Source of the DNA: Candidatus Gottesmanbacteria bacterium
Lineage (GTDB): Bacteria > Patescibacteriota > Microgenomatia > UBA10105 > UBA927
Length of the DNA stretch: 64,000 nucleotides
NCBI GenBank assembly: GCA_963701185.1
Contig: OY969569.1
Location: 383,054-447,053, forward strand
Direction of reading: 5' to 3'
Under the pieces are notes generated by a model that made no database searches, had not been told where the DNA came from, and saw only the letters and a list, made by a program, of their open reading frames with translations. The translations under genes and the position numbers were made by a program. Every line of letters begins with the position of its first letter. Within the stretch, counting starts at the first letter, position 1. This document shows positions 1 through 63,879 of this stretch, one piece after another.

Positions 1-81
1 TCTCAAAGTCATCTTCGAAGTGGCGGAGGAATGGATCCGCTTCATCCGCACGAAAAAGGAAGAAATTGTATAGTCAGCTTT

Positions 82-111
82 GAAGACTGTCTTTGTACAA
101 AGACAGTCTTC
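82..111. repeat. REP-like hairpin copy 1 (gaagactgtctttgtacaaagacagtcttc)
   Basis: 30-nt palindrome read directly: 13-bp arms around a 4-nt centre. It overlaps the stop codon of the RAYT gene (110..754). Confidence 0.85.
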
Positions 112-754
112 ATTCGTCAAAACGTAACTCTGCGGGTATATTACGTATAGAGTCAGTTGCTTCAACGAAATCCTTATACCGAACAAACGGCAGTTCTTTC
201 TGATGATTGGTAAAGTGGCTTAAAATAATTGCTGTGTTGAGCCAAATCGCATGTTTTTTTCCAAGATAATAACTGTAACTTGAATACGGATACAAAACTG
301 GGTCTGTGCATATTTCAGGAATGGGATTCCTATGAATATACCGAGAAAGATACAAAAAATACGATTCATTATCGATATGTATCGCCTTATATCGTCCCTG
401 AAACAAATGTCCTTGGCGGGTATATTTTTTATTAAAAAATTTCACATATCTTGTGATCACGCTTCGCATGAATGTTTCTATTCCGTTAAAGTCTTTCTGA
501 TGTACAAACAGATGAAAGTGGTTAGGCATCATAACAAAACAAAGCAAGTTTACATGGGTATACAAATTTTTCCTTTTTATGAGTATTTTTGTTGGGTCTT
601 CTTCAGGAGGCGGGGACAAACAGTCTTTAATAATTCGTAAGAATACCGAATAATCCATTTCATCTAAAAAGATGGGGCGCTTATCAACTCCTCTATTGTA
701 AATATGATAATACCCATCTGCCACATACTCTTTCAGTTCGTTTTTGGCAGGCAT
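110..754 (-). CDS. IS200/IS605-like Y1 (HuH) transposase, REP-associated tyrosine transposase (RAYT) type
   Basis: HuH motif NHFHLFV and catalytic Tyr motif YIHRNPI. The N-terminal YHIYNRG is typical of TnpA_REP/COG1943. Both ends are flanked by REP-like hairpins. Confidence 0.85.
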   Translation of the reverse strand: MPAKNELKEYVADGYYHIYNRGVDKRPIFLDEMDYSVFLRIIKDCLSPPPEEDPTKILIKRKNLYTHVNLLCFVMMPNHFHLFVHQKDFNGIETFMRSVITRYVKFFNKKYTRQGHLFQGRYKAIHIDNESYFLYLSRYIHRNPIPEICTDPVLYPYSSYSYYLGKKHAIWLNTAIILSHFTNHQKELPFVRYKDFVEATDSIRNIPAELRFDE

Positions 755-770
755 AAATCCTAGTGTAGTT

Positions 771-802
771 CAAAGACTGTCTTTACGTAAAGACAGTCTT
801 TG
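771..802. repeat. REP-like hairpin copy 2 (caaagactgtctttacgtaaagacagtctttg)
   Basis: 32-nt perfect palindrome immediately 5' of the RAYT start. It has the same agactgtcttt / aaagacagtct arms as copy 1. Confidence 0.85.
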
Positions 803-1339
803 TCATTTAGCGGATGTCAGAGGATCGAATTTCAAATTCTCAAAAAACTTCATCTGTGACGCATGCATCTTTTGGGCGCGGGGGCTTTCGTTCATTACCC
901 AAAGTGTAGATCTGAATTCTTCCGGCCTGCTGTCGCGGAGCAAAAGTCTATTCCGTTCCTGAACCTTTTTAAATTCCTCTGTTAATCTCCCCGTGTATCC
1001 CGGAGGCAACATGGATATCGTTAGACTCTCTGAAGACATTTCAGCCAGATGTGAGAACTTATCTTTCTCCCGCAGGTATACATCATATGAGTACCCGCTT
1101 CCGTCCGGTTTTCCGAACTGGCTTCCGATACCCACCTCAATATCAGGTCCGAATCTCTTTTTCAAGTATGCTTCAACGTTTTTCGGTACATAGGATTGTC
1201 TGTCGCGGACATCAGGACGACTAGAAGCGGGCAAGGGGTTTCTCATATTTTCTTCCTGATCCCATTCCAAAATAAGCCTGTTCCACTTCTGAAACTCAAC
1301 TTCCTGTGGTTTATCTTCCGGTACGGTATTTACATTCAT
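803..1339 (-). CDS. hypothetical protein (178 aa)
   Basis: Long ORF abutting REP copy 2. No recognisable motif. Confidence 0.4.
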   Translation of the reverse strand: MNVNTVPEDKPQEVEFQKWNRLILEWDQEENMRNPLPASSRPDVRDRQSYVPKNVEAYLKKRFGPDIEVGIGSQFGKPDGSGYSYDVYLREKDKFSHLAEMSSESLTISMLPPGYTGRLTEEFKKVQERNRLLLRDSRPEEFRSTLWVMNESPRAQKMHASQMKFFENLKFDPLTSAK

Positions 1340-1396
1340 AAGGTCAATATACTGTTCTTTTCAACATAAAGCAAATAACTATTTAACCTTGATTTG

Positions 1397-1469
1397 TGAG
1401 CGCGCAGAGAATCGAACTCTGAACCGACTCCTTAAGAGGGAGTTGCTCTACCAGTTGAGCTACGCGCCC
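1397..1469 (-). tRNA. tRNA-Lys (anticodon CTT)
   Basis: Reverse complement folds as a cloverleaf: acceptor gggcgcg/cgcgctc, anticodon loop ctCTTaa, T-loop ttcgatt. CCA is not encoded. Confidence 0.85.
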
Positions 1470-1473
1470 TGAG

Positions 1474-1545
1474 CGCCCTCGAGAGGAATCGAACCTCTAT
1501 GAGCAGTTCCGAAGACTGCTGCTTTATCCGTTAAGCTACGAGGGC
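1474..1545 (-). tRNA. tRNA-Arg (anticodon TCG)
   Basis: Reverse complement gccctcgtagcttaacggataaagcagcagtcttcggaactgc.... Anticodon stem gcagt/actgc, loop ctTCGga, T-arm agagg-ttcgatt-cctct. Confidence 0.8.
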
Positions 1546-1600
1546 AACCTCATAATTATACCAGCAACACGCTGATAAATCGATTTGCTATACTGTAACG

Positions 1601-2902
1601 GTGGAAAGCAACCGGGAGTCTACAGTAAATTATATTGAAGGCGGATCACCCGAGATAACAGTCGGAGAAAATATCGGATGGGCGCAAAAAATTTTCAAGG
1701 CATTCCCGGCATTTAAAAGTAAAAAATTCCAGCTGTATTTCGGCGGACAGCTCATTTCCGTCATCGGGACATGGCTCCAAATTGTCGCCGAGGGGTGGCT
1801 CGTGTACCAGCTTACCCATTCCGCATTCTACGTCGGACTGGACGCCGCGGCCGCCACCATTCCCTCGCTCTTTTTATCATTACTGGGCGGCGTCATCGTG
1901 GATAGGTATCCCAAAAAACGTATCCTGATATTTACACAGTCCGCCTCAATGGTATTGGCGTTTACCCTCGGAATCCTTACGGTTTTACAGGTGATCACGG
2001 TATGGGAAATTATCACGCTTGCGTTTTTATTGGGCGTCGTCAACGCCATCGACGCGCCGGCAAGGCAAGCGATTATCACGGACCTTATCGACAACAAACA
2101 GTCGCTTGCATCCGCCATTGCACTCAATTCCGGCATCTTTAATGCCGCACGCGTCATCGGCCCGACCATTGCGGGACTCCTGATTGCGGCAGTCGGAGCA
2201 GGCACCGCCTTTATCCTCAATGGAGCAAGCTATATTGCCGTCATCATCGCGCTCTTCTATATCCGTCTGCCGGCAGCCGCACCGAACATTCATCTGGCTC
2301 CGATGAAGGCAATCCGGGAAGGTCTCAGCTATACCTATCACCACGATATCATCAGGACGCTTCTTATTCTTTCCGGCGTCGTCTCCATTTTCGGCTGGTC
2401 ATATTCTACCCTTCTGCCGGTTATGGCCACGGAAACGTTTCACCTGGGAGCCATGGGGTTGGGATACCTGTATGCCGCCGCCGGACTTGGAGCACTTTTG
2501 GGCACCATATGTATCTCCGCATTTTCGCGCAAACTGGGGGCGATATTCTTTATCATCGGGGGAAATATCACATTTTCCGTTTCCCTCATCCTGTTCACGT
2601 TTGTCTCCAATGTGCCCATTGCACTCATTCTTTTATTCCTCATCGGTGCGGGTCTGGTTTCCCAGTTTGCCATGACCACAACGGTCATCCAGCATCAGGT
2701 GACCGACGCTCTCCGGGGGCGAGTGATGAGCGTCTATACGCTCGTATTTTTGGGGTTGAGCCCTCTCGGGAATCTCGAAATCGGATTTGCGGCCGAACAT
2801 CTTGGAACAGAAATGGCAATCCGCGTGAGCGCCCTCATTATGCTTGGCTTTGCCGTTTATCTTTTAACCAATAAAAAAAATGTCGCACGGCTTCGCATAT
2901 GA
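1601..2902 (+). CDS. MFS-family transporter (12-TM, EntS/MFS_3-like)
   Basis: 433-aa polytopic hydrophobic protein. Motif DRYPKKR after TM2 is typical of MFS loop 2-3. Confidence 0.65.
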   Translation: MESNRESTVNYIEGGSPEITVGENIGWAQKIFKAFPAFKSKKFQLYFGGQLISVIGTWLQIVAEGWLVYQLTHSAFYVGLDAAAATIPSLFLSLLGGVIVDRYPKKRILIFTQSASMVLAFTLGILTVLQVITVWEIITLAFLLGVVNAIDAPARQAIITDLIDNKQSLASAIALNSGIFNAARVIGPTIAGLLIAAVGAGTAFILNGASYIAVIIALFYIRLPAAAPNIHLAPMKAIREGLSYTYHHDIIRTLLILSGVVSIFGWSYSTLLPVMATETFHLGAMGLGYLYAAAGLGALLGTICISAFSRKLGAIFFIIGGNITFSVSLILFTFVSNVPIALILLFLIGAGLVSQFAMTTTVIQHQVTDALRGRVMSVYTLVFLGLSPLGNLEIGFAAEHLGTEMAIRVSALIMLGFAVYLLTNKKNVARLRI

Positions 2903-3174
2903 AGAGATGGCATGTCTATATCCTTCGCTGTGCTGATAATACACTCTATACCGGGGTGACGACAGATATTGAGCGCCGGATCCATGAACATAATATAAAA
3001 TCGTCAGGGGCAAAATATACGAAAGCGAAACGCCCGGTGACGCTTGTCTATTCTGAAGCGGTTCCAAACCGAAGTGCGGCGCTCAAACGCGAAGCGGCAA
3101 TAAAAAAACTATCAAAACGGGAGAAAGAAAACTTGACGCGACACCCGGGCTATGTAACTATAGAACCATGCTAA
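2899..3174 (+). CDS. GIY-YIG nuclease-domain protein (UPF0213/YhbQ-like)
   Basis: N-terminal WHVYILRCADNTLYTGVTTDIERRIHEHN matches the GIY-YIG signature. Confidence 0.75.
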   Translation: MKRWHVYILRCADNTLYTGVTTDIERRIHEHNIKSSGAKYTKAKRPVTLVYSEAVPNRSAALKREAAIKKLSKREKENLTRHPGYVTIEPC

Positions 3175-3764
3175 GGAAGACCCTATTGGCTTTATTGTGG
3201 TTTCCGCTCACATTCACTCTGCTTATCATAAACCTGACGATATTGGGAGCAACCTCCAACTGGGACCGTCCGACTCTTCCGCTCTCAAATGCCGCACCGA
3301 ATGAGAATAGCATCACGGCCGCAGGCGGCACATCGGAGGTTCTCTCGGCGACCGTTATCGCCGGCGACGCGCGGACGTTTCTCCTGGAATCATTTCTGAA
3401 AAGAAATAATTCTCCGATGACGCCCTACGCAGGTCTTATTGTGGAACAGGCAGATGCCTATAAGTTTGATTTCCGGCTGGTGCCTGCAATCGCCATGTGC
3501 GAATCGAATCTCGGGAAACGCGTACCGCTCAAATCCGGATTTAATCCCTTTGGTATTGCGGTGTATACGGGGAGCCAATCCGGCAAAAATTTTGACAGCT
3601 GGCAAACTGCTATTGAATGGGTGAGCAAGTATATTCACGACCGATATTACGTCCAGGGGATTACTGCACTTGCGGATATCGGGGCAATTTGGGCACCTCC
3701 GTCGGTTGCCGAGGGCGGTTCGTGGGCCGACTGCGTCGGATTCTTCATGAAAAAGCTCTATTGA
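3168..3764 (+). CDS. secreted protein with glucosaminidase/FlgJ-like domain (paralog 1)
   Basis: N-terminal TM/signal segment. AIAMCESNLGKR resembles the glucosaminidase A-x-ESxxG motif. Paralogous to 3869..4426. Confidence 0.45.
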   Translation: MLRKTLLALLWFPLTFTLLIINLTILGATSNWDRPTLPLSNAAPNENSITAAGGTSEVLSATVIAGDARTFLLESFLKRNNSPMTPYAGLIVEQADAYKFDFRLVPAIAMCESNLGKRVPLKSGFNPFGIAVYTGSQSGKNFDSWQTAIEWVSKYIHDRYYVQGITALADIGAIWAPPSVAEGGSWADCVGFFMKKLY

Positions 3765-3780
3765 CAAATAGCCCATAGAC

Positions 3781-3809
3781 TTGACAACTACCCCTATTTA
3801 GGCTATACT
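3781..3809 (+). promoter_or_regulatory. sigma70-like promoter TTGACA-17-TATACT
   Basis: ttgaca at 3781-3786 and tatact at 3804-3809, with a 17-nt spacer. It lies upstream of CDS 3869. Confidence 0.45.
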
Positions 3810-3868
3810 GCCGCCTTAGATCCTAAAGTAAGCTCGTTAAACAGTTTGCTTTAGGATTTTTTGGTGGT

Positions 3869-4426
3869 ATGAAAAAAATATTAACGATCATCATGCTCCT
3901 TTTAGCCTTATCTGGCCTCTCAACGGCCAAAGTTTTTGCCACATCTGAGGCTGGTTCTACTGCAACGCTTGCCTATCATGTAGCCTCAGATACAACGAAT
4001 GACACGCGGGTTAGGCGCCTCCGAATGTTTTTGGAATCGTATGATTCGCCGCTTGCCGCTGACGCCGCAACATTCGTCGCTGAAGCTGATAAATATAACC
4101 TCGATTGGAAGCTCGTTGCCGCGATCGCAGGCGTGGAATCCACATTCGGCAAACAGATTCCGACCGGCTCATATAACAGCTGGGGCTGGGGTGTATTTAC
4201 CGGAGCGGCGGACGGCGTCCATTTTAAAGACTGGGCGCAGGGTATCGCTGTGGTTTCCGAAGGGCTGCGCAAAAACTACATAGACCGCGGTGCCCGGGAC
4301 ATCTATGACATGGGCTGGATTTATGCCGCCAACGGTGATTCGTGGGCTTCGCATGTCCGCTACTTTATCGATAAACTGGAAACGTTTCAGCCCACCGAGG
4401 TTGCCCAACTACCGGTCTCCATCTAA
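3869..4426 (+). CDS. secreted protein with glucosaminidase/FlgJ-like domain (paralog 2)
   Basis: Signal peptide MKKILTIIMLLLALSGLSTA. AIAGVESTFGKQ motif. Colinear similarity to 3168..3764. Confidence 0.45.
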   Translation: MKKILTIIMLLLALSGLSTAKVFATSEAGSTATLAYHVASDTTNDTRVRRLRMFLESYDSPLAADAATFVAEADKYNLDWKLVAAIAGVESTFGKQIPTGSYNSWGWGVFTGAADGVHFKDWAQGIAVVSEGLRKNYIDRGARDIYDMGWIYAANGDSWASHVRYFIDKLETFQPTEVAQLPVSI

Positions 4427-4432
4427 GCGGGG

Positions 4433-4438
4433 TATAAT
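4433..4438 (+). promoter_or_regulatory. -10 box TATAAT for tRNA-Leu
   Basis: ggtataat, 8 nt upstream of the tRNA 5' end. Confidence 0.4.
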
Positions 4439-4446
4439 ATCACTAT

Positions 4447-4527
4447 GCCGCAGTGGTGGAATGGTATACACGTACGCTTTAGGAGCGTATGCCGAAAGGC
4501 TTAGGGGTTCAACTCCTCTCTGCGGCA
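4447..4527 (+). tRNA. tRNA-Leu (anticodon TAG), long variable arm
   Basis: gccgcag...tacgc-ttTAGga-gcgta, variable arm tgccgaaaggctta, T-arm, acceptor ctgcggc. CCA is not encoded. Confidence 0.8.
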
Positions 4528-4558
4528 CAGTAAAAATTATCTATTGATAAGGAGTATT

Positions 4559-5032
4559 ATGAGATATCTTGAAAGTCAATTACCTAGACGGGGTGAACCT
4601 TATACTAATCGCACAGAACCAAAAGAATATTTTGATTATCAGGATGAAATCAAAAGATTAGCCAATAATATAAGTCGTGAAACGGCTAATCATATTTTTC
4701 ATTTGATCCACAGCGCAGAACAATCTTACCAACCTGCGACGGGAAAAAGAGCTGAACTATTGGAGGATCACCGAGATGATGTGGCGGATATTTTTTTCAG
4801 TTCGACCCAATACGCAGAATATTTTTATCAACACGCGATGGGAAATTGCATCGAACAATTAAATAACCCCCGGTATGTAGAAAGGACCCTGAGAAATTTA
4901 TACCCTGTTTTATTAAGAGAATTTCCGTCGTTACGGTCGATCTTTCGAGAGTCGATTACAAAATTGCCACATGGAGAAGAGGTGATTATGGCGATACAAG
5001 GATTGGATGATTTTAAAGATCTTTTCAAGTAA
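4559..5032 (+). CDS. hypothetical protein (157 aa) in islet
   Basis: ATG at 4559 with an aaggag RBS. AT-rich. No known motif. Confidence 0.45.
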   Translation: MRYLESQLPRRGEPYTNRTEPKEYFDYQDEIKRLANNISRETANHIFHLIHSAEQSYQPATGKRAELLEDHRDDVADIFFSSTQYAEYFYQHAMGNCIEQLNNPRYVERTLRNLYPVLLREFPSLRSIFRESITKLPHGEEVIMAIQGLDDFKDLFK

Positions 5033-5161
5033 ATCCATTTTCAATCCATATTGACAACATATATTCGTGTTAATTATAGTTGTGAGCTAATTGATATTTT
5101 GTGTTGGTAAAACACTTGTTTTCCATTGATTAATCCACATAATCGTGTCGTAATTTAGGAT

Positions 5162-5587
5162 ATGAAGCAAAATATCCCTAAAAAGCGACGTATTTGTGTG
5201 GACTGTAATAGTAAATTAATTAAGTGGGGGGAAACCGGTAAAGGTCGGATTCAATACCGTTGTCCGTTGTGTTTAAAAACAAAATCTTCAACCCCTCGAA
5301 CACATCGGCCACCAACCTATCTCGTCACTCAACCTACTCGGGGAATTATCTCGATTTGTGGTTTCAAGATCAGCTGTTTCAAACTCCACCACACTTTTCA
5401 CTTCCCATTCCTCATCGAGAAGAACAATACGTTTTACTCGACGGTCTTTGGTTTGGGGATAATCTCAATCTTCTTGCTTACAGACTTCATCATTGGCCAT
5501 TTATCATTCATCACTCTTTTGGGAAAAGAAAGACGACCGCTCGTAGAGGTTCAACTCCTCTCTGCGGCACAACATAACACCTTTTGA
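5162..5587 (+). pseudogene. IS1595-family transposase remnant (N-terminal zinc ribbon only, probably frameshifted or truncated)
   Basis: CVDCNSKLIKWGETGKGRIQYRCPLC matches the Zn_Tnp_IS1595 ribbon. The overlapping frame 5260..5577 carries the continuation (QYVLLDGLWFGDN). Total length is far short of a DDE transposase. Confidence 0.45.
5548..5571. repeat. direct repeat of tRNA-Leu 3' end (putative attR)
   Basis: Identical 24 nt to 4506-4529. Extended similarity of 28 nt with 1 mismatch. Confidence 0.8.
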
Positions 5588-5626
5588 TCTCTTGAATCTT
5601 CATCAAAATCCGCATATTCTTATACT

Positions 5627-5881
5627 ATGTTAACCACCCGTGATCTTTCGCAAATACAAAAAATTGTCCAGCTTGAATCAAAAAAATCGATCCAATCTGA
5701 AACGCCGGGTATCGTCAAAAAAATTGTACAGGAGGAACTGAAACCAATTAAAAAGGATATCCTGGCAATAAAGAAAGATATAAATCTCATTGTCAAAACA
5801 TTCGATCGTGATTATGTCGCGCTTCGCAAAAAAGTCGAACGCCTAGAAACTCAGCCCTTTCCGTTATTTACGCACGCCTGA
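5627..5881 (+). CDS. hypothetical small coiled-coil protein (84 aa)
   Basis: Lys/Ile-rich heptad-like sequence. C-terminus is loosely similar to 17783..18115. Confidence 0.35.
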   Translation: MLTTRDLSQIQKIVQLESKKSIQSETPGIVKKIVQEELKPIKKDILAIKKDINLIVKTFDRDYVALRKKVERLETQPFPLFTHA

Positions 5882-5902
5882 TTTCATGATACAATTCTTC
5901 CC

Positions 5903-6724
5903 ATGACTTCAACAATAAATCGGGAAACGGACGGGTCTATAGCGATTACCATTACCATCCCCTGGGCGGATGTGGCCAAAACATACGAGAAGGTCGTTGC
6001 CGATATGGTCAATCATGCGGAGCTTCCGGGCTTCCGCATCGGCAAAGCCCCCCGCGAACTGGTCGAAAAAAATATCGACAAAACAAAAGTCTATGAAGAG
6101 GCATTAAAAACTTTAATCCCGGATTCCTACAATGCCGCAGTAACGGAACAAAAAGTCAAACCGATCGTCAGCCCAAAAATTGAACTCAAGGATGCCACCG
6201 AAAACAAAGACTGGGTATTTATTGCCCACACCTGCGAAAAACCGAATATCGCGATAGGGGAGTATAAAACGGCCATCCAGGGCACCAAAACAAAAATATT
6301 AAAACCCGGCGAAGAACCAAAAAAACCCACACTCGATGAACTTCTTGCCGCTTTATATCATAATGTAACTGTCACACTCCCGTCACTTCTTATCGAACAC
6401 GAAGTAAACCGTCTGCTATCGGAACTTATCGACCAGACCAAAAAACTCGGGCTGACCGTCGAGCAATATCTGGCGTCGACTGCACGCACCAGCGAAACAA
6501 TCAAGAAAGAATATGAAGAGCAGGCAAAACGGACGCTCACATTGGAATTTGCACTTGAGGAAATCGCCGATGCCGAGGGCATTCTTGTATCTGACGATGA
6601 TATCGATGCCGTCATTAAAACCGGCAAAACCGATGAAGAAAAGAAGACACTGGAAAATCAACGCTACTATTTGGCATCGGTCCTGCGCCGCCAGAAAACC
6701 CTTGACTTTCTCGCTTCAATATAA
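5903..6724 (+). CDS. tig: trigger factor, short form lacking the PPIase domain
   Basis: ELPGFRIGKAPRELVEK is the TF ribosome-binding signature (GFRxGKxP). The C-terminal arm domain is present. Only 273 aa. Confidence 0.7.
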   Translation: MTSTINRETDGSIAITITIPWADVAKTYEKVVADMVNHAELPGFRIGKAPRELVEKNIDKTKVYEEALKTLIPDSYNAAVTEQKVKPIVSPKIELKDATENKDWVFIAHTCEKPNIAIGEYKTAIQGTKTKILKPGEEPKKPTLDELLAALYHNVTVTLPSLLIEHEVNRLLSELIDQTKKLGLTVEQYLASTARTSETIKKEYEEQAKRTLTLEFALEEIADAEGILVSDDDIDAVIKTGKTDEEKKTLENQRYYLASVLRRQKTLDFLASI

Positions 6725-15021: not shown

Positions 15022-15593
15022 TCGGGCGAATCTCCCGCATATTATTTTGGGTTGCCGGCCTTACGTGCCTTGCCGGTATTACCATCTTGCTTCTGACATT
15101 TGGTCCGCTTGCTACACAGGAACTCCGGTATACAGCCCATGCAGTTCCGAAAGAGATTGTCCCGATTGATAAAAATTTCGGCATCGTGATCCCACGCTTA
15201 GGCGCCAATGCACGGATTATTGCCAACGTCGATCCGTATGACAGTAAGGCCTACCAGTACGCCCTCACCAAAGGAGTCGCCCATGCCCGCGGCACCAGCG
15301 TACCGGGCGCGATGGGGAACATATTTTTATTCGCCCATTCATCGGAAAATTTTTACGATGCGTTGCGATATAATTCCGTTTTTTATCTTCTCCCGAAACT
15401 CACCGCCGGAGACAAAATTCTTTTGTATTATCACGGCGTGAAGTTTACCTACACGGTAACCGGTAAAAAATTCGTAAGTTCCAAAGATGTTTCTTACCTA
15501 CAAGGAGAGTCCTTGAAGTCGACGCTTACCCTCATGACTTGCTGGCCGCCGGGCACAACCAATCAGCGACTTCTCGTATTTGCATCCCTATGA
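14991..15593 (+). CDS. sortase (transpeptidase) family protein
   Basis: N-terminal TM anchor. Conserved His in FLFAHSS. Catalytic TLMTCWP (TLxTC) and downstream Arg (QRLLV). Sits next to the LPXTG substrate gene. Confidence 0.75.
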   Translation: MARKKKKVRIIGRISRILFWVAGLTCLAGITILLLTFGPLATQELRYTAHAVPKEIVPIDKNFGIVIPRLGANARIIANVDPYDSKAYQYALTKGVAHARGTSVPGAMGNIFLFAHSSENFYDALRYNSVFYLLPKLTAGDKILLYYHGVKFTYTVTGKKFVSSKDVSYLQGESLKSTLTLMTCWPPGTTNQRLLVFASL

Positions 15594-22316: not shown

Positions 22317-24284
22317 ATGAACATACTCATACCTGATTCATGGCTCAGAGAATTTCTTAAAACAAAGGCAACTTCTCAACAGATAAAGGAGTATTTGTCC
22401 CTGTGTGGCCCGTCGGTCGAACGGCTTAGAAGACTGTCTTTGAACAAAGACAGTCTTCAAGGCGAAACAGTTTACGACATCGAAATCACAACCAACCGGC
22501 CCGACGCGATGTCTGTTTTTGGTGTCGCGCGCGAGGCGGCGGCGATTTTACCCCGGTTCGGGATTCCGGCAAAATTCGTCAATGACCCCTATGCCCTACA
22601 AGGACTCTCCTTGAAGGACGAGGAGAGTCCTTCTCGGAGCCTTAAACTTTTTATCAAAACCGACCCGAAGCTTAATCCCCGCTGGACATCTATTATTCTT
22701 TCGGATGTCCGCGTCGCGCCTTCGCCCCTCTGGCTCAAACAAAAACTGGAAGCAACCGGCATCCGCAGCATCAACAACGTGATTGACATCACGAATTATC
22801 TGATGCGCGCCTACGGCCAGCCGGCGCACGCGTTTGATTATGACGAAATTAAGGACTCAACAATGATCCTTCGTGAAAGTAAGAAGGGTGAAAAAATCGT
22901 CACCCTGGACGGAAAGACACACACCCTCGCAGGCGGCGACATCGTGATCGAAGACGGCGCCGGCAGACTCATTGACTTGTGCGGCATCATGGGCGCGCAA
23001 AACTCCAGCATTAAACCCGGAACGTCATCTGTTGTTCTTTTTACCCAAACGTACAATCCCGTCAATATCCGCAAAACCTCCATGGCACTGGCGGCGCGAA
23101 GCGAAGCGTCATCGCTTTTTGAAAAAGGACTCGATAGTGAACTGACACTACCTGCTTTAATCCGCGGAATAGAACTGATGGAAAAACTTACCGGCGCACA
23201 CGCTGCCAGTAAAATGTATGACATCTATCCCAAACCGTACAAACCATATTCAGTTACTGTCTCAAAAGAAAAAACGGCGGGCTATATGGGGACAGAACTC
23301 ACTGATACTGAAATAAAAAAAATACTGGTTCCGCTCGGATTCACGCCGTCTCTCACTAAAAAAGAGATTACCGTCACGGTCCCGAGCTACCGCACGGATG
23401 TGACACTGGACGTGGATGTGATTGAAGAAATCGCCCGGATATACGGATATCACAACATACAGACCACATTGCCGGAAGGCGAGCCGCCGATCGTCATACC
23501 TGATCCGCTCCTTGGATGGGAACACGAAATAAAAATACACCTGCGCGATTGGGGATTTACCGAACTCACTACCTACTCCATGATTTCCGAAAAACTCATG
23601 GGGATATTCGGCCTTGATACCAATAAAGCATATAAAATCACCAATCCGCTTTCGGAGGAATGGCTCTACATGCGGCCAACACTCCTCCCAAGCGCGCTTC
23701 TTGCCGTTGAACAGAACCTGCATTTCAGAAAGGATCTGCAATTATTTGAATTAAGTATGACGTATCAATGGCGTGAGCACGATTTGCCCAAAGAAAAACC
23801 GACACTGGTCGTTGCGTGGACCGGAAACAAACATCGCGAGGCCAAAGGAGTAGGAGAAGCTATCTGTTCGATCCTGGGTGAACGCAATTCGGGCTTCGTT
23901 GAAGAAGTTAAACCTGATCTTCTGTCAAAAATGAATATCCATACGCCGGTGACGACATTGACTCTCGATATTGCCGATCTTGTTACCCACGCAACACGGA
24001 ATAAAAAATATGTTCCGATTTCTAAATATCCTCCGATCGTCGAAGATTTATCGTTCATCGTTCCGCAGGGATTCCAGGTCGGTCCGCTTATTGACGTTCT
24101 GTCGCGGGTTCACAAACTTATCGAGTCCATCGTTTTCTTAGACGCCTATGAAAACAAACGGACGTTCCGTGTCACGTACAATGACCCGACAAAAAACCTG
24201 ACCGGCATGGATATCGCACCCATCCGTCAAAAACTCATCGAATACGCCGGAGAAAAATTCGGGGCCTCCGTGGTCACCGCTTAA
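22317..24284 (+). CDS. pheT: phenylalanyl-tRNA synthetase beta subunit (short form lacking N-terminal tRNA-binding domain)
   Basis: B3/4 and B5 domains, then an FDYDEI-containing core. 655 aa. Carries an in-frame REP hairpin at 22429-22458. Confidence 0.85.
   Translation: MNILIPDSWLREFLKTKATSQQIKEYLSLCGPSVERLRRLSLNKDSLQGETVYDIEITTNRPDAMSVFGVAREAAAILPRFGIPAKFVNDPYALQGLSLKDEESPSRSLKLFIKTDPKLNPRWTSIILSDVRVAPSPLWLKQKLEATGIRSINNVIDITNYLMRAYGQPAHAFDYDEIKDSTMILRESKKGEKIVTLDGKTHTLAGGDIVIEDGAGRLIDLCGIMGAQNSSIKPGTSSVVLFTQTYNPVNIRKTSMALAARSEASSLFEKGLDSELTLPALIRGIELMEKLTGAHAASKMYDIYPKPYKPYSVTVSKEKTAGYMGTELTDTEIKKILVPLGFTPSLTKKEITVTVPSYRTDVTLDVDVIEEIARIYGYHNIQTTLPEGEPPIVIPDPLLGWEHEIKIHLRDWGFTELTTYSMISEKLMGIFGLDTNKAYKITNPLSEEWLYMRPTLLPSALLAVEQNLHFRKDLQLFELSMTYQWREHDLPKEKPTLVVAWTGNKHREAKGVGEAICSILGERNSGFVEEVKPDLLSKMNIHTPVTTLTLDIADLVTHATRNKKYVPISKYPPIVEDLSFIVPQGFQVGPLIDVLSRVHKLIESIVFLDAYENKRTFRVTYNDPTKNLTGMDIAPIRQKLIEYAGEKFGASVVTA
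22429..22458. repeat. REP-like hairpin copy 3 (gaagactgtctttgaacaaagacagtcttc), in frame inside pheT
   Basis: 26/30 nt identical to copy 1. It encodes RLSLNKDSLQ in pheT without breaking the frame. Confidence 0.85.
22600..22632. repeat. 12-bp perfect inverted repeat (aaggactctcct ... aggagagtcctt) with 9-nt loop inside pheT
   Basis: Read directly. Shares the caagga/gagagtcct motif seen at 15498 and 55818. Confidence 0.6.
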
Positions 24285-35984: not shown

Positions 35985-36012
35985 TGTTTTAATGTTTTAA
36001 AACATTAAAACA
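35985..36012. repeat. 28-bp perfect palindrome copy A (tgttttaatgttttaaaacattaaaaca)
   Basis: Read directly. Intergenic between tyrS and recG. Confidence 0.9.
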
Positions 36013-55223: not shown

Positions 55224-55838
55224 ATGCATGCTTTCCTTCTTGTTGGCAATAATCCTCAAGAAGAACTGGAATCCCGTGTTGCCGCATGGAAAATTTCTCC
55301 ATGGGACATACACCGGCCAGGAGGCGCAGGCATTGCGGATATCCGCGCGTTGTGCCGCGACCTGTCTCTCGCCCCGCGCGGCTACGAGCACGTAGGCATT
55401 ATCGAACACATGGAGCTTCTGACTCCTGAAGCGCAAAATGCGCTTTTAAAAACACTCGAAGAGCCCCCGCCGCATACATATATTATAGGGACCACTCACA
55501 TGCCAGAGGCGCTCTTGCCCACCGTCCGGTCACGGATGACTATTATTACAGTAAAAAATACTATCAAAAAGTCAGATGCAACAAGTCTATTAAAATTATT
55601 ACAGGAGTCTGCAGGGCAACGCCTCTCAACGCTTGAACCGTTTGTTGCCACGCGCGACGATGCGAAAATTTTTGTCACCGCGCTTCTTGATGCAACCCAT
55701 GAAGAACTTCTCACACATCCATCACCGCGCCTTACCAAACTCATCCGAAATCTCCTCGCCGCCCAGTCCCAACTCGCGGTCAACGTCAATCCGCGGCTGG
55801 TTGTCGACAACGCAGTACTACAAGGAGAGTCCTCGTAG
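55224..55838 (+). CDS. holB: DNA polymerase III delta-prime subunit-like (short AAA+ lid-only form)
   Basis: LLKTLEEPP and RSR sensor motif. 204 aa. Its stop overlaps a short hairpin and is 4 nt from palindrome copy B. Confidence 0.6.
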   Translation: MHAFLLVGNNPQEELESRVAAWKISPWDIHRPGGAGIADIRALCRDLSLAPRGYEHVGIIEHMELLTPEAQNALLKTLEEPPPHTYIIGTTHMPEALLPTVRSRMTIITVKNTIKKSDATSLLKLLQESAGQRLSTLEPFVATRDDAKIFVTALLDATHEELLTHPSPRLTKLIRNLLAAQSQLAVNVNPRLVVDNAVLQGESS

Positions 55839-55841
55839 TCC

Positions 55842-55869
55842 TGTTTTAATGTTTTAAAACATTAAAACA
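55842..55869. repeat. 28-bp perfect palindrome copy B
   Basis: tgttttaatgttttaaaacattaaaaca read directly. Preceded by tcctcgtagtcc. Confidence 0.9.
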
Positions 55870-56549: not shown

Positions 56550-56572
56550 CCTACGAGGATACTCCTCGTAGG
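56550..56572. repeat. hairpin cctacgagga-tac-tcctcgtagg (10-bp stem) abutting palindrome copy C
   Basis: Read directly. An imperfect homolog (ctacaagga-gag-tcctcgtag) sits at 55818-55838 before copy B. Confidence 0.7.
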
Positions 56573-56574
56573 CC

Positions 56575-56602
56575 TGTTTTAATGTTTTAAAACATTAAAA
56601 CA
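56575..56602. repeat. 28-bp perfect palindrome copy C
   Basis: Identical to copies A, B and D. Confidence 0.9.
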
Positions 56603-63851: not shown

Positions 63852-63879
63852 TGTTTTAATGTTTTAAAACATTAAAACA
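63852..63879. repeat. 28-bp perfect palindrome copy D
   Basis: Identical 28-mer. Confidence 0.9.

Follow-up and report, generated by a model that had tools for sequence, protein, structure and literature searches.

The closest described counterparts of the system reported here are the REPtrons, in which repetitive extragenic palindromes (REPs) accompany the gene for a REP-associated tyrosine transposase (RAYT or TnpA-REP), and which occur as a single copy at one locus and do not move as a unit (PMC3333891). In the classification of single-tyrosine (Y1) transposases, class 2, on the TnpA-REP side, is told from IS200 by its signature, Y---NP in place of Y---Q (Quentin 2018; PMC6006769). Intragenic REPs and the Rickettsia palindromic elements (RPE) RPE-4/6 have already been reported (PMC3733652), and the Quentin classification describes REPs lying in frame within a tnpA-REP gene only for its subclass 2.4 (PMC6006769). 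That classification mentions no taxa of the candidate phyla radiation (CPR), and our literature search for RAYT or REP in Patescibacteria/CPR found no description, only a KEGG label in passing. Here, we report on a 64,000-nucleotide stretch of DNA from a Candidatus Gottesmanbacteria bacterium (assembly GCA_963701185.1, contig OY969569.1, positions 383,054 to 447,053; hereafter the window), in which the gene for a predicted Y1 nuclease/transposase of the HUH type lies between two copies of a perfectly palindromic hairpin. We consider it probable, at roughly 0.7, that the locus combines a class-2 Y1 HUH nuclease gene of the TnpA-REP/RAYT type, domesticated and present as a single copy, with the palindromic repeat that is its cognate partner. 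A REPtron-like interpretation is supported by the evidence set out below; a canonical or strict RAYT is not what we claim.

The Y1 gene occupies positions 110..754 on the minus strand and encodes a protein of 214 aa, assigned to class-2 TnpA-Y1 (RAYT-like) from its Pfam match, predicted fold and homologues. The original prediction, made from the letters alone, had read a HuH motif (HFHLFV) and a YIHRNP motif in this open reading frame (ORF), and both were located, the first at aa 78-84 (NHFHLFV) and the second at aa 139-144 (YIHRNP). The HuH codons H79-F80-H81, inside NHFHLFVHQ, lie at 512..520 (minus strand), and the tyrosine motif Y139-I-H-R-N-P, which holds the predicted catalytic residue and the class-2 'Y---NP' signature, at 323..340 (minus strand). 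As had been anticipated, the protein matches a Y1 transposase profile: Pfam Y1_Tnp (PF01797) scores 34.6 bits against a cut-off of 23 over residues 58-143, and Pfam returned no domain besides it. Across an alignment of 36 homologues, H79, H81, Q86, Y139, H141, N143, S158, S159 and W171 are invariant and P144 is nearly so (at least 90%), and the NHFH, FQ, Y---NP and SS motifs of the family are those of class 2.

A plain single-sequence search of the PDB with the window protein gave no match at E<=1, and a profile built from the 36 homologues gave marginal ones (ISDra2 TnpA, E 0.013; E. coli TnpA-REP 4er8, E 0.086), the alignment to 4er8 spanning the HuH motif, the tyrosine motif and a pairing of YPYSSY with WPFSTF. 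An AlphaFold2 model of the protein had a mean predicted local distance difference test score (pLDDT) of 87.4, and the top PDB match of this model by Foldseek was 4er8_A (E 8e-8, TM 0.70, root-mean-square deviation (rmsd) 3.2 Å over 171 columns), the E. coli REP-associated tyrosine transposase (TnpA-REP, YafM) with a bound REP hairpin. The IS200, IS608 and ISDra2 TnpAs of the IS200/IS605 family came behind 4er8_A (E 5e-5 to 1e-3, rmsd 7-11 Å), and every one of the top 30 PDB matches was a Y1 transposase (30/30). The fold of the window protein, as modelled, is nearest to TnpA-REP and farther from the IS200, IS608 and ISDra2 TnpAs.

Each end of the gene is met by a perfect 32-nt palindrome. Hairpin 1, TGAAGACTGTCTTTGTACAAAGACAGTCTTCA (TGAAGACTGTCTTTGT/ACAAAGACAGTCTTCA), lies at 81..112 and hairpin 2, CAAAGACTGTCTTTACGTAAAGACAGTCTTTG (CAAAGACTGTCTTTAC/GTAAAGACAGTCTTTG), at 771..802, and both consist of 16-nt arms with zero spacer, effectively a 14-bp stem with a 4-nt loop. 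Perfect hairpins on both flanks had been predicted and are present, each 32 nt long rather than the approximately 30 nt first proposed. Folded as single-stranded DNA, they reach -13.6 kcal/mol (z -7.1) and -13.8 kcal/mol (z -8.1), respectively, and a third window copy, described below, reaches -18.0 kcal/mol, with z-scores overall of about -6.5 to -8.5. The pattern AGACTGTCTTT-N2-8-AAAGACAGTCT has 3 copies in the window against 0.00 in 100 shuffles. The hairpins are perfect palindromes made of two near-palindromic 13-mers, and those of the window are symmetric even in their loops (GTAC, ACGT), so that no orientation can be defined for them. On either strand, the hairpin family has a foot consensus of T-(A/G)-A (TAA/TGA).

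Hairpin 1 sits at the 3' end of the Y1 gene, 8 nt beyond the TAG stop (71-73) of the gene that converges from the left, and the Y1 TGA stop (complement of 110-112) falls within the palindrome, in keeping with the predicted overlap of the 3' hairpin and the stop codon. Hairpin 2 lies 16 nt upstream of the Y1 ATG, across a spacer at 755..770 (minus strand; AACTACACTAGGATTT in gene orientation) of which CTACACTA is kept in the homologous locus L087, and it abuts the stop codon (803-805) of an ORF at 803..1339. Transcription of the Y1 gene would have to proceed either through hairpin 2 together with this ORF, or from a promoter overlapping the hairpin. The ORF itself (minus strand, 178 aa) has no Pfam or NCBIfam match.

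Homologues of the window protein number more than 7,900 at E<=1e-5 among the matches listed, and those at the top that carry names come from Patescibacteria, among them Gottesman-, Levy- and Beckwithbacteria. When 1.84 billion representatives were searched with a profile, 2,887 clusters (50% identity) were returned at E<=1e-30 and 20,767 at E<=1e-10, the best matches of the Y1 clade being, where named, Microgenomates. The same AAAGAC(T/A)GTCTTT hairpin frames the homologous genes of L087 (80% identity), L082/L083 (65%) and L058 (42%, a Roizmanbacteria metagenome-assembled genome, MAG). In L087 and L082/L083, the upstream arm begins 45 nt ahead of the ATG, and in all three cases the downstream hairpin lies over the stop or just past it. 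In L082, a Gottesmanbacteria homologue locus, a tRNA-like 3' end stands directly beside the upstream hairpin (~2880-2920).

More distant relatives follow the same layout with other sequences. We sampled 80 metagenome loci of 35-50% identity, of which 74 had enough flank for a comparison of the 120 nt upstream with the 100 nt downstream of the Y1 homologue; the two flanks share at least a 10-mer in 58 of the 74, whereas shuffled pairings gave 3.5 on average and never more than 9. For the most part, the hairpins on both sides are alike within a locus and different between loci, as exemplified by CCTGCAGGGCCAGGCCCTGCAGG (L103), TAGCTTCGCAAGGCGTGGCCYTGCGAAGCTA (L107) and TGCTACCGGGTACGACCCGGTAGCA (L145). 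At the level of sequence comparison, then, the hairpin co-varies with the Y1 protein across the family. Many homologues (L103, L096, L131, L106, L088, L180 and others) also hold, within the gene and in frame, one or two of their own hairpins, around aa 50, ahead of HuH, and around aa 150, beyond the tyrosine; the peptides encoded at both sites include LQGQALQ, GSDP and TGSRPV. The window gene may retain at most a decayed arm close to the first of these sites, where many homologues have an intact hairpin of their own; the evidence is weak, a stretch AAGACTGTTTGT (616..627, minus strand) that has two mismatches and encodes KDCL (aa 43-46). Among 20 loci of two homologues, no presence/absence polymorphism of the hairpin was seen between strains.

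The gene between the hairpins has a fixed locus and is inherited vertically. The 64-kb window contains one copy of it, and positions 1-6200 are collinear with L087 through the left-hand gene, Y1, tRNA-Lys/Arg, a GIY-YIG gene, two further genes and trigger factor. Against L087, the proportion of synonymous differences (pS) in Y1 is 0.648, close to those of two neighbour genes (0.643, 0.708), and the ratio of nonsynonymous to synonymous proportions (pN/pS) is 0.18, below the neighbours' 0.27, with a Jukes-Cantor-corrected dN/dS of 0.087. Judged by these comparisons, the Y1 gene is single-copy within the window, syntenic and under purifying selection. Elsewhere in the family, three identical-protein clusters each occupy one fixed locus with the same neighbours in 23-24 contigs per cluster from many samples, the neighbours being dnaE and gatB for cluster P0052 and, upstream, dCTP deaminase for cluster P0055. 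A search of 2.9 million viral contigs gave no match to the hairpin and only two, distant, relatives of Y1. The fixed locus, selection, synteny and viral absence argue together against an active IS200-like element and match the published description of the REPtron. Between the window and L087, two loci whose synonymous sites are near saturation and whose adjacent intergenic DNA cannot be aligned, the hairpin arms still agree at 53/54 positions.

Some further features of this region deserve mention. Within the first 6 kb, collinearity with L087 is broken only by the 178-aa ORF at 803-1339 (minus strand) and a 433-aa, membrane-transporter-like ORF at 1601-2902 (plus strand). About 600 nt separate the Y1 gene from the genes for tRNA-Lys(CTT) and tRNA-Arg(TCG) at 1396-1545 (minus strand). 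Just outside both hairpins of the L087 unit, at ~2925-2955 and ~3690-3715, there is a ~26-nt direct repeat, ACTATTTCTTCTTTTT(T)CGCGCGGAT, which duplicates the 3' end of the neighbouring gene; none such was seen in the window. It could be the footprint of the arrival of the unit or of the hairpin. A phage origin for the system was also considered, and was rejected given viral contigs lacking the hairpin and holding just the two distant Y1 relatives.

The third copy of the hairpin in the window stands alone, inside pheT (ORF 22317-24284, plus strand), which encodes the beta subunit of phenylalanyl-tRNA synthetase as identified by Pfam. Hairpin 3 spans 22424..22463 (plus strand), with a perfect core at 22429-22458, a GAAC loop and the pattern match proper at 22431-22456. 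It is translated in frame as RRLSLNKDSLQ, and the corresponding PheT loop is 7 aa longer than in 14/14 aligned Microgenomates homologues. The original prediction made its hairpin family depend on further genomic copies; besides this one, there are dozens in related Patescibacteria genomes. In a scan of one genome per species, the exact pattern was present in 81 stretches, and it was multi-copy solely in Patescibacteria-type MAGs (17 loci in one, 6-8 in two and 3 in several). Singleton matches in Bacteroidota and Clostridia genomes, which are followed by T-runs, were set aside as chance terminators.

The Patescibacteria-type loci number 62 and hold 71 hairpin copies. A crude ORF call puts 32 of the 71 well inside long ORFs, 5 no more than 20 aa from a stop and 30 between genes, with 4 uncertain; of the intergenic copies, 23/30 abut the 3' end of a gene. 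The hosts of the deep-internal copies are genuine genes, among them those for TrxB (one gene having two copies), Fmt, Def, GluRS, a P-type ATPase, PBP2, a sortase and peptidase U32, and the encoded peptides are KTVFxKDSL, RLSLxKDSL and KTVFxQRQSL. No stop codon occurs in any of the six frames of the hairpin core. Loops are genome-specific, with ATT/AAT in 14/17 copies of one MAG, which argues for amplification or homogenisation inside each genome, and in one orthologous copy the stem has stayed paired through a compensatory T>C/A>G change.

Orthologous genes of several genomes carry the hairpin at the same codon position, with exact arms, varied loops and diverged flanking amino acids. Such sites were seen in TrxB (L051 5118-6122, L055 4162-4869, L067 1914-2921), sortase (L057/L017/L030/L050/L021), Fmt (L011/L032/L078) and Def (L033/L066/L048). 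Other short repetitive or palindromic coding inserts (IRNSKFEIRN, LEIRNF, LEFGISNL...NLEF) are present at a second TrxB site of L067 (~2250-2300) and in the Fmt genes of L032 and L078, and one of them sits exactly where a relative has its AAGAC hairpin, which suggests further element families or insertion hot spots. Several of the hairpin-rich, A+T-rich MAGs are labelled 'uncultured Gammaproteobacteria' (L001, L033, L039, L042, L046, L055 and L057; CAYIVY01), as are further loci in CAYYYW01, CAYQTP01 and CAZIYS01. These labels look wrong, as suggested by L055 (CAYIVY01), the TrxB DNA of which is near-identical to that of a Patescibacteria MAG (L051).

A number of observations weigh against a REPtron-like assignment. 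The search with a TnpA_REP model proposed in the original prediction did produce a match, to the NCBIfam equivalog REP_Tyr_transpos (NF047646), but at 40.9 bits, under the cut-off of 80, and the window protein is only marginally similar in sequence to RAYT and IS200 proteins of solved structure. The RAYT motifs of Nunvar, NP(L/V)(R/K)xG and an N-terminal Thr, were not found in the window protein, which has NPIPEI after the tyrosine (family consensus NPxxxxGxDP) and YHIYNRG at its N terminus. E. coli TnpA-REP requires a GTAG-type head for binding and cutting (PMC3333891), and 160 half-site flanks of the hairpin family show no enrichment of GTAG, GTGG or CGTC heads; the plus strand of the spacer does read GTAG 2 nt from hairpin 2, and from that hairpin only, so this is no general trait of the family. 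REPs flanking RAYTs are 'always' inverted and RAYTs evolve faster (Nunvar 2010; PMC2817692), whereas here the paired flank hairpins are of mixed orientation (direct in 29 loci, inverted in 18, symmetric in 11) and the window Y1 gene evolves more slowly than its neighbours. There is a single solo copy in the 64-kb window, and the most hairpin-rich MAG showed no Y1 gene in its 8-kb pieces examined. The label 'extragenic' fails because many copies are intragenic, and exact arms across many genomes are unusual for REPs and could reflect a host function unrelated to transposition. Neither of the two outcomes that would have refuted the original prediction, a protein outside the Y1 profiles or a hairpin family lacking other copies, was observed, and homologues retain the bracketed layout.

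How else might this arrangement be explained? The hairpin at each end and the size of the whole (81-802, 722 bp) are IS200-like, and an autonomous insertion sequence could move as just such a unit of left-end hairpin, tnpA and right-end hairpin, leaving solo hairpins as its remnants. Paired hairpins that are direct in 29/58 homologue loci, as in IS200/IS605, and the ~26-nt direct repeat outside both hairpins of L087 would fit such an element. We nevertheless consider it unlikely, since the tyrosine motif is Y---NP and not Y---Q, the protein has 214 aa with a conserved C-terminal tail as opposed to the ~150 aa of an IS200 TnpA, and the predicted fold is nearer to TnpA-REP than to the TnpAs of IS200, IS608 and ISDra2. 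The conduct of the gene points the same way: one copy in the window, in a syntenic setting, with pS like that of its neighbours and a lower pN/pS; three identical-protein clusters fixed at one locus each over 23-24 contigs; and viral contigs from which the hairpin is absent and Y1 relatives nearly so.

A different possibility is that the hairpins are structural or regulatory signals of the host (3'-end stabilisers, terminators or a protein-binding site) that have nothing to do with Y1, the bracketing being a by-product of their position at gene ends. Both framing hairpins do touch stop codons of flanking genes, most intergenic copies in related genomes (23/30) abut a 3' end, the arms are conserved across genomes far above neutral expectation, and REPs elsewhere have such secondary roles (PMC3733652). 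A terminator scan of positions 1-1700, however, found 0 sites of hairpin plus T-run, the stems being A+T-rich and ending in TTT only, and Rfam over the hairpins returned tRNAs and sub-threshold noise and no match to them; they are accordingly neither a known RNA family nor classical terminators. Flank hairpins that are identical within a locus and specific to it (58/74 loci against 3.5 by chance), cognate hairpins within the Y1 genes too, and the location of about half of the copies in coding regions, where a terminator would harm, likewise make this explanation improbable. More doubtful still, and in our judgement very unlikely, is the idea that the 12-13-mer AAAGAC(T/A)GTCTTT is a lineage-wide recognition sequence, such as a signal of the DNA-uptake type or an operator bound by a dimeric DNA-binding protein, which tends to occur as inverted pairs, with Y1 merely lying between two of them. 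Exact arms with varying loops in many Patescibacteria genomes, and arms that are each near-palindromic, as the site of a dimer would be, are consistent with it; a density as low as 3 hairpins in 64 kb, the near absence of single arms, and the quite different hairpins that other Y1 clades hold at the same positions are not.

If we return to a domesticated Y1 nuclease with a cognate hairpin, a mechanism can be proposed by analogy with E. coli TnpA-REP and IS608 TnpA (PMC3333891, PMC8266576, PMC3479197). The Y1 enzyme would bind the hairpin folded in single-stranded DNA, for example on the lagging-strand template, and would cut beside its foot, Y139 forming a 5'-phosphotyrosine link and H79/H81 coordinating the metal ion. 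The hairpin would then be joined into new single-stranded sites, so that the 30-nt hairpin would spread and the gene would not. Copies would be retained where they are harmless, at gene ends, where the TAA/TGA...TTA/TCA feet might even provide stop codons, and in the surface loops of proteins, which would tolerate them because the core is open in six reading frames. The copies that flank the Y1 gene or lie inside it could be the ends of an ancestral IS200-like element, or could reflect a preference for nearby insertion or self-regulation.

It is tempting to go further and to speculate, tentatively, that Y1 is a lineage-wide, host-retained 'palindrome writer' of Microgenomates/Patescibacteria, which inserts and re-homogenises a 30-nt hairpin at gene ends, in the loops of essential genes and in its own gene, the hairpins having acquired a host function. 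We regard this broader proposal as possible but rather less probable than its negation. An acquired function would explain how the arms remain exact across genomes whose synonymous sites are saturated. Were the proposal true, these would be the first RPE-like in-frame palindromic peptides of a reduced genome to be tied to an identifiable enzyme.

The window also contains other repeat families. A second hairpin family, CCTACGAGGA-nnn-TCCTCGTAGG with CTAC...GTAG ends, is present at 55818-55838 and 56550-56572 (seen as CTACGAGGA...TCCTCGTAG at 55818 and 56551), with weaker matches at 15498-15518 and 22596-22616, the latter also inside pheT. Hairpins of this type frame a Y1 homologue in the metagenome locus L104, and no cognate Y1 gene was seen in the window. 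In addition, four identical 28-nt, A+T-rich perfect palindromes, TGTTTTAATGTTTTAAAACATTAAAACA, are found at 35985-36012, 55842-55869, 56575-56602 and 63852-63879. Three of the four lie 23-73 nt upstream of a plus-strand ORF, and the ORF of the fourth would leave the window; two directly adjoin hairpins of the second family. They may be an operator/promoter element or a third repeat family.

Genomes of the CPR are about 1 Mb in size, and repeats and mobile DNA are usually said to be scarce in them. Against this background, a single plan appears to underlie a very large Y1 clade, the sampled loci consisting of a fixed, selected nuclease gene that is framed, and often interrupted, by its own hairpin. 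Because the hairpins decorate essential proteins (PheT, TrxB, Fmt, Def, GluRS), such a system would shape the proteome as well as the genome. It also offers a tractable enzyme-substrate pair for the spread and persistence of palindromes of the REP/RPE type.

Among known systems, the REPtron (TnpA-REP/RAYT with REPs or bacterial interspersed mosaic elements; PMC2817692, PMC3333891, PMC8266576) resembles the window locus in having a single-copy, fixed Y1 HUH gene framed by a dispersed hairpin, co-variation of protein and hairpin, and Y---NP. The resemblance extends to the best structural match, 4er8_A, and to a C-terminal aromatic-P-aromatic-S-S/T-aromatic motif, YPYSSY here and WPFSTF in E. coli TnpA-REP. 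The window system differs in a protein score under the NCBIfam RAYT cut-off and in hairpins that lack a GT[AG]G head and are perfect palindromes; in addition, the orientation of its flanks is variable, its copy number is low, many copies are intragenic, and its arms are conserved over many genomes, in contrast to the species-specific REPs. The IS200/IS605 elements (IS200, IS608, ISDra2) also have the Y1 HUH fold, with subterminal hairpins to either side of tnpA and a unit of about 0.7 kb; their Y---Q motif, core-only protein of ~150 aa, many near-identical copies and horizontal transfer were not seen here. Rickettsia palindromic elements and intragenic REPs (PMC3733652) are likewise short in-frame palindromes in the housekeeping genes of a reduced genome, including tRNA synthetases, and occupy permissive loops. 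The present element, by contrast, is about 30 nt long without a CGTC/GTAG tag, and, unlike for the RPE, an obvious candidate enzyme is encoded between two of its copies.

Within the published TnpA-Y1 classification, subclass 2.1/TIRYT (PMC6006769, PMC3733652) comes close in its motifs, sharing NH[YF]H, FQ, Y[IV]HLNP, an SS tail and a length of ~214-240 aa, as judged by inspecting the family alignments against Table 1 of PMC6006769. That subclass is described without REP-like flanks and with a C-terminal DnaA_C/helix-turn-helix-like domain, whereas here flanking hairpins are usual and Y1_Tnp is the only domain. Subclass 2.4 of Cyanobacteria/Bacteroidetes (PMC6006769) has REPs in frame inside tnpA-REP as well as flanking it, as in the family described here, but it is set apart by WQ and YIxNNP motifs, GT[AG]G-tagged or 'double foot' REPs, and inserts that fall between HuH and Y. 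What is new, and supported by the comparisons above, is a large Patescibacteria clade of class-2 Y1 proteins whose untagged, perfectly palindromic partner repeats also occur in frame in essential genes. Published TnpA-Y1 classifications would thereby be extended by proteins that combine subclass-2.1-like motifs with REP-like partners.

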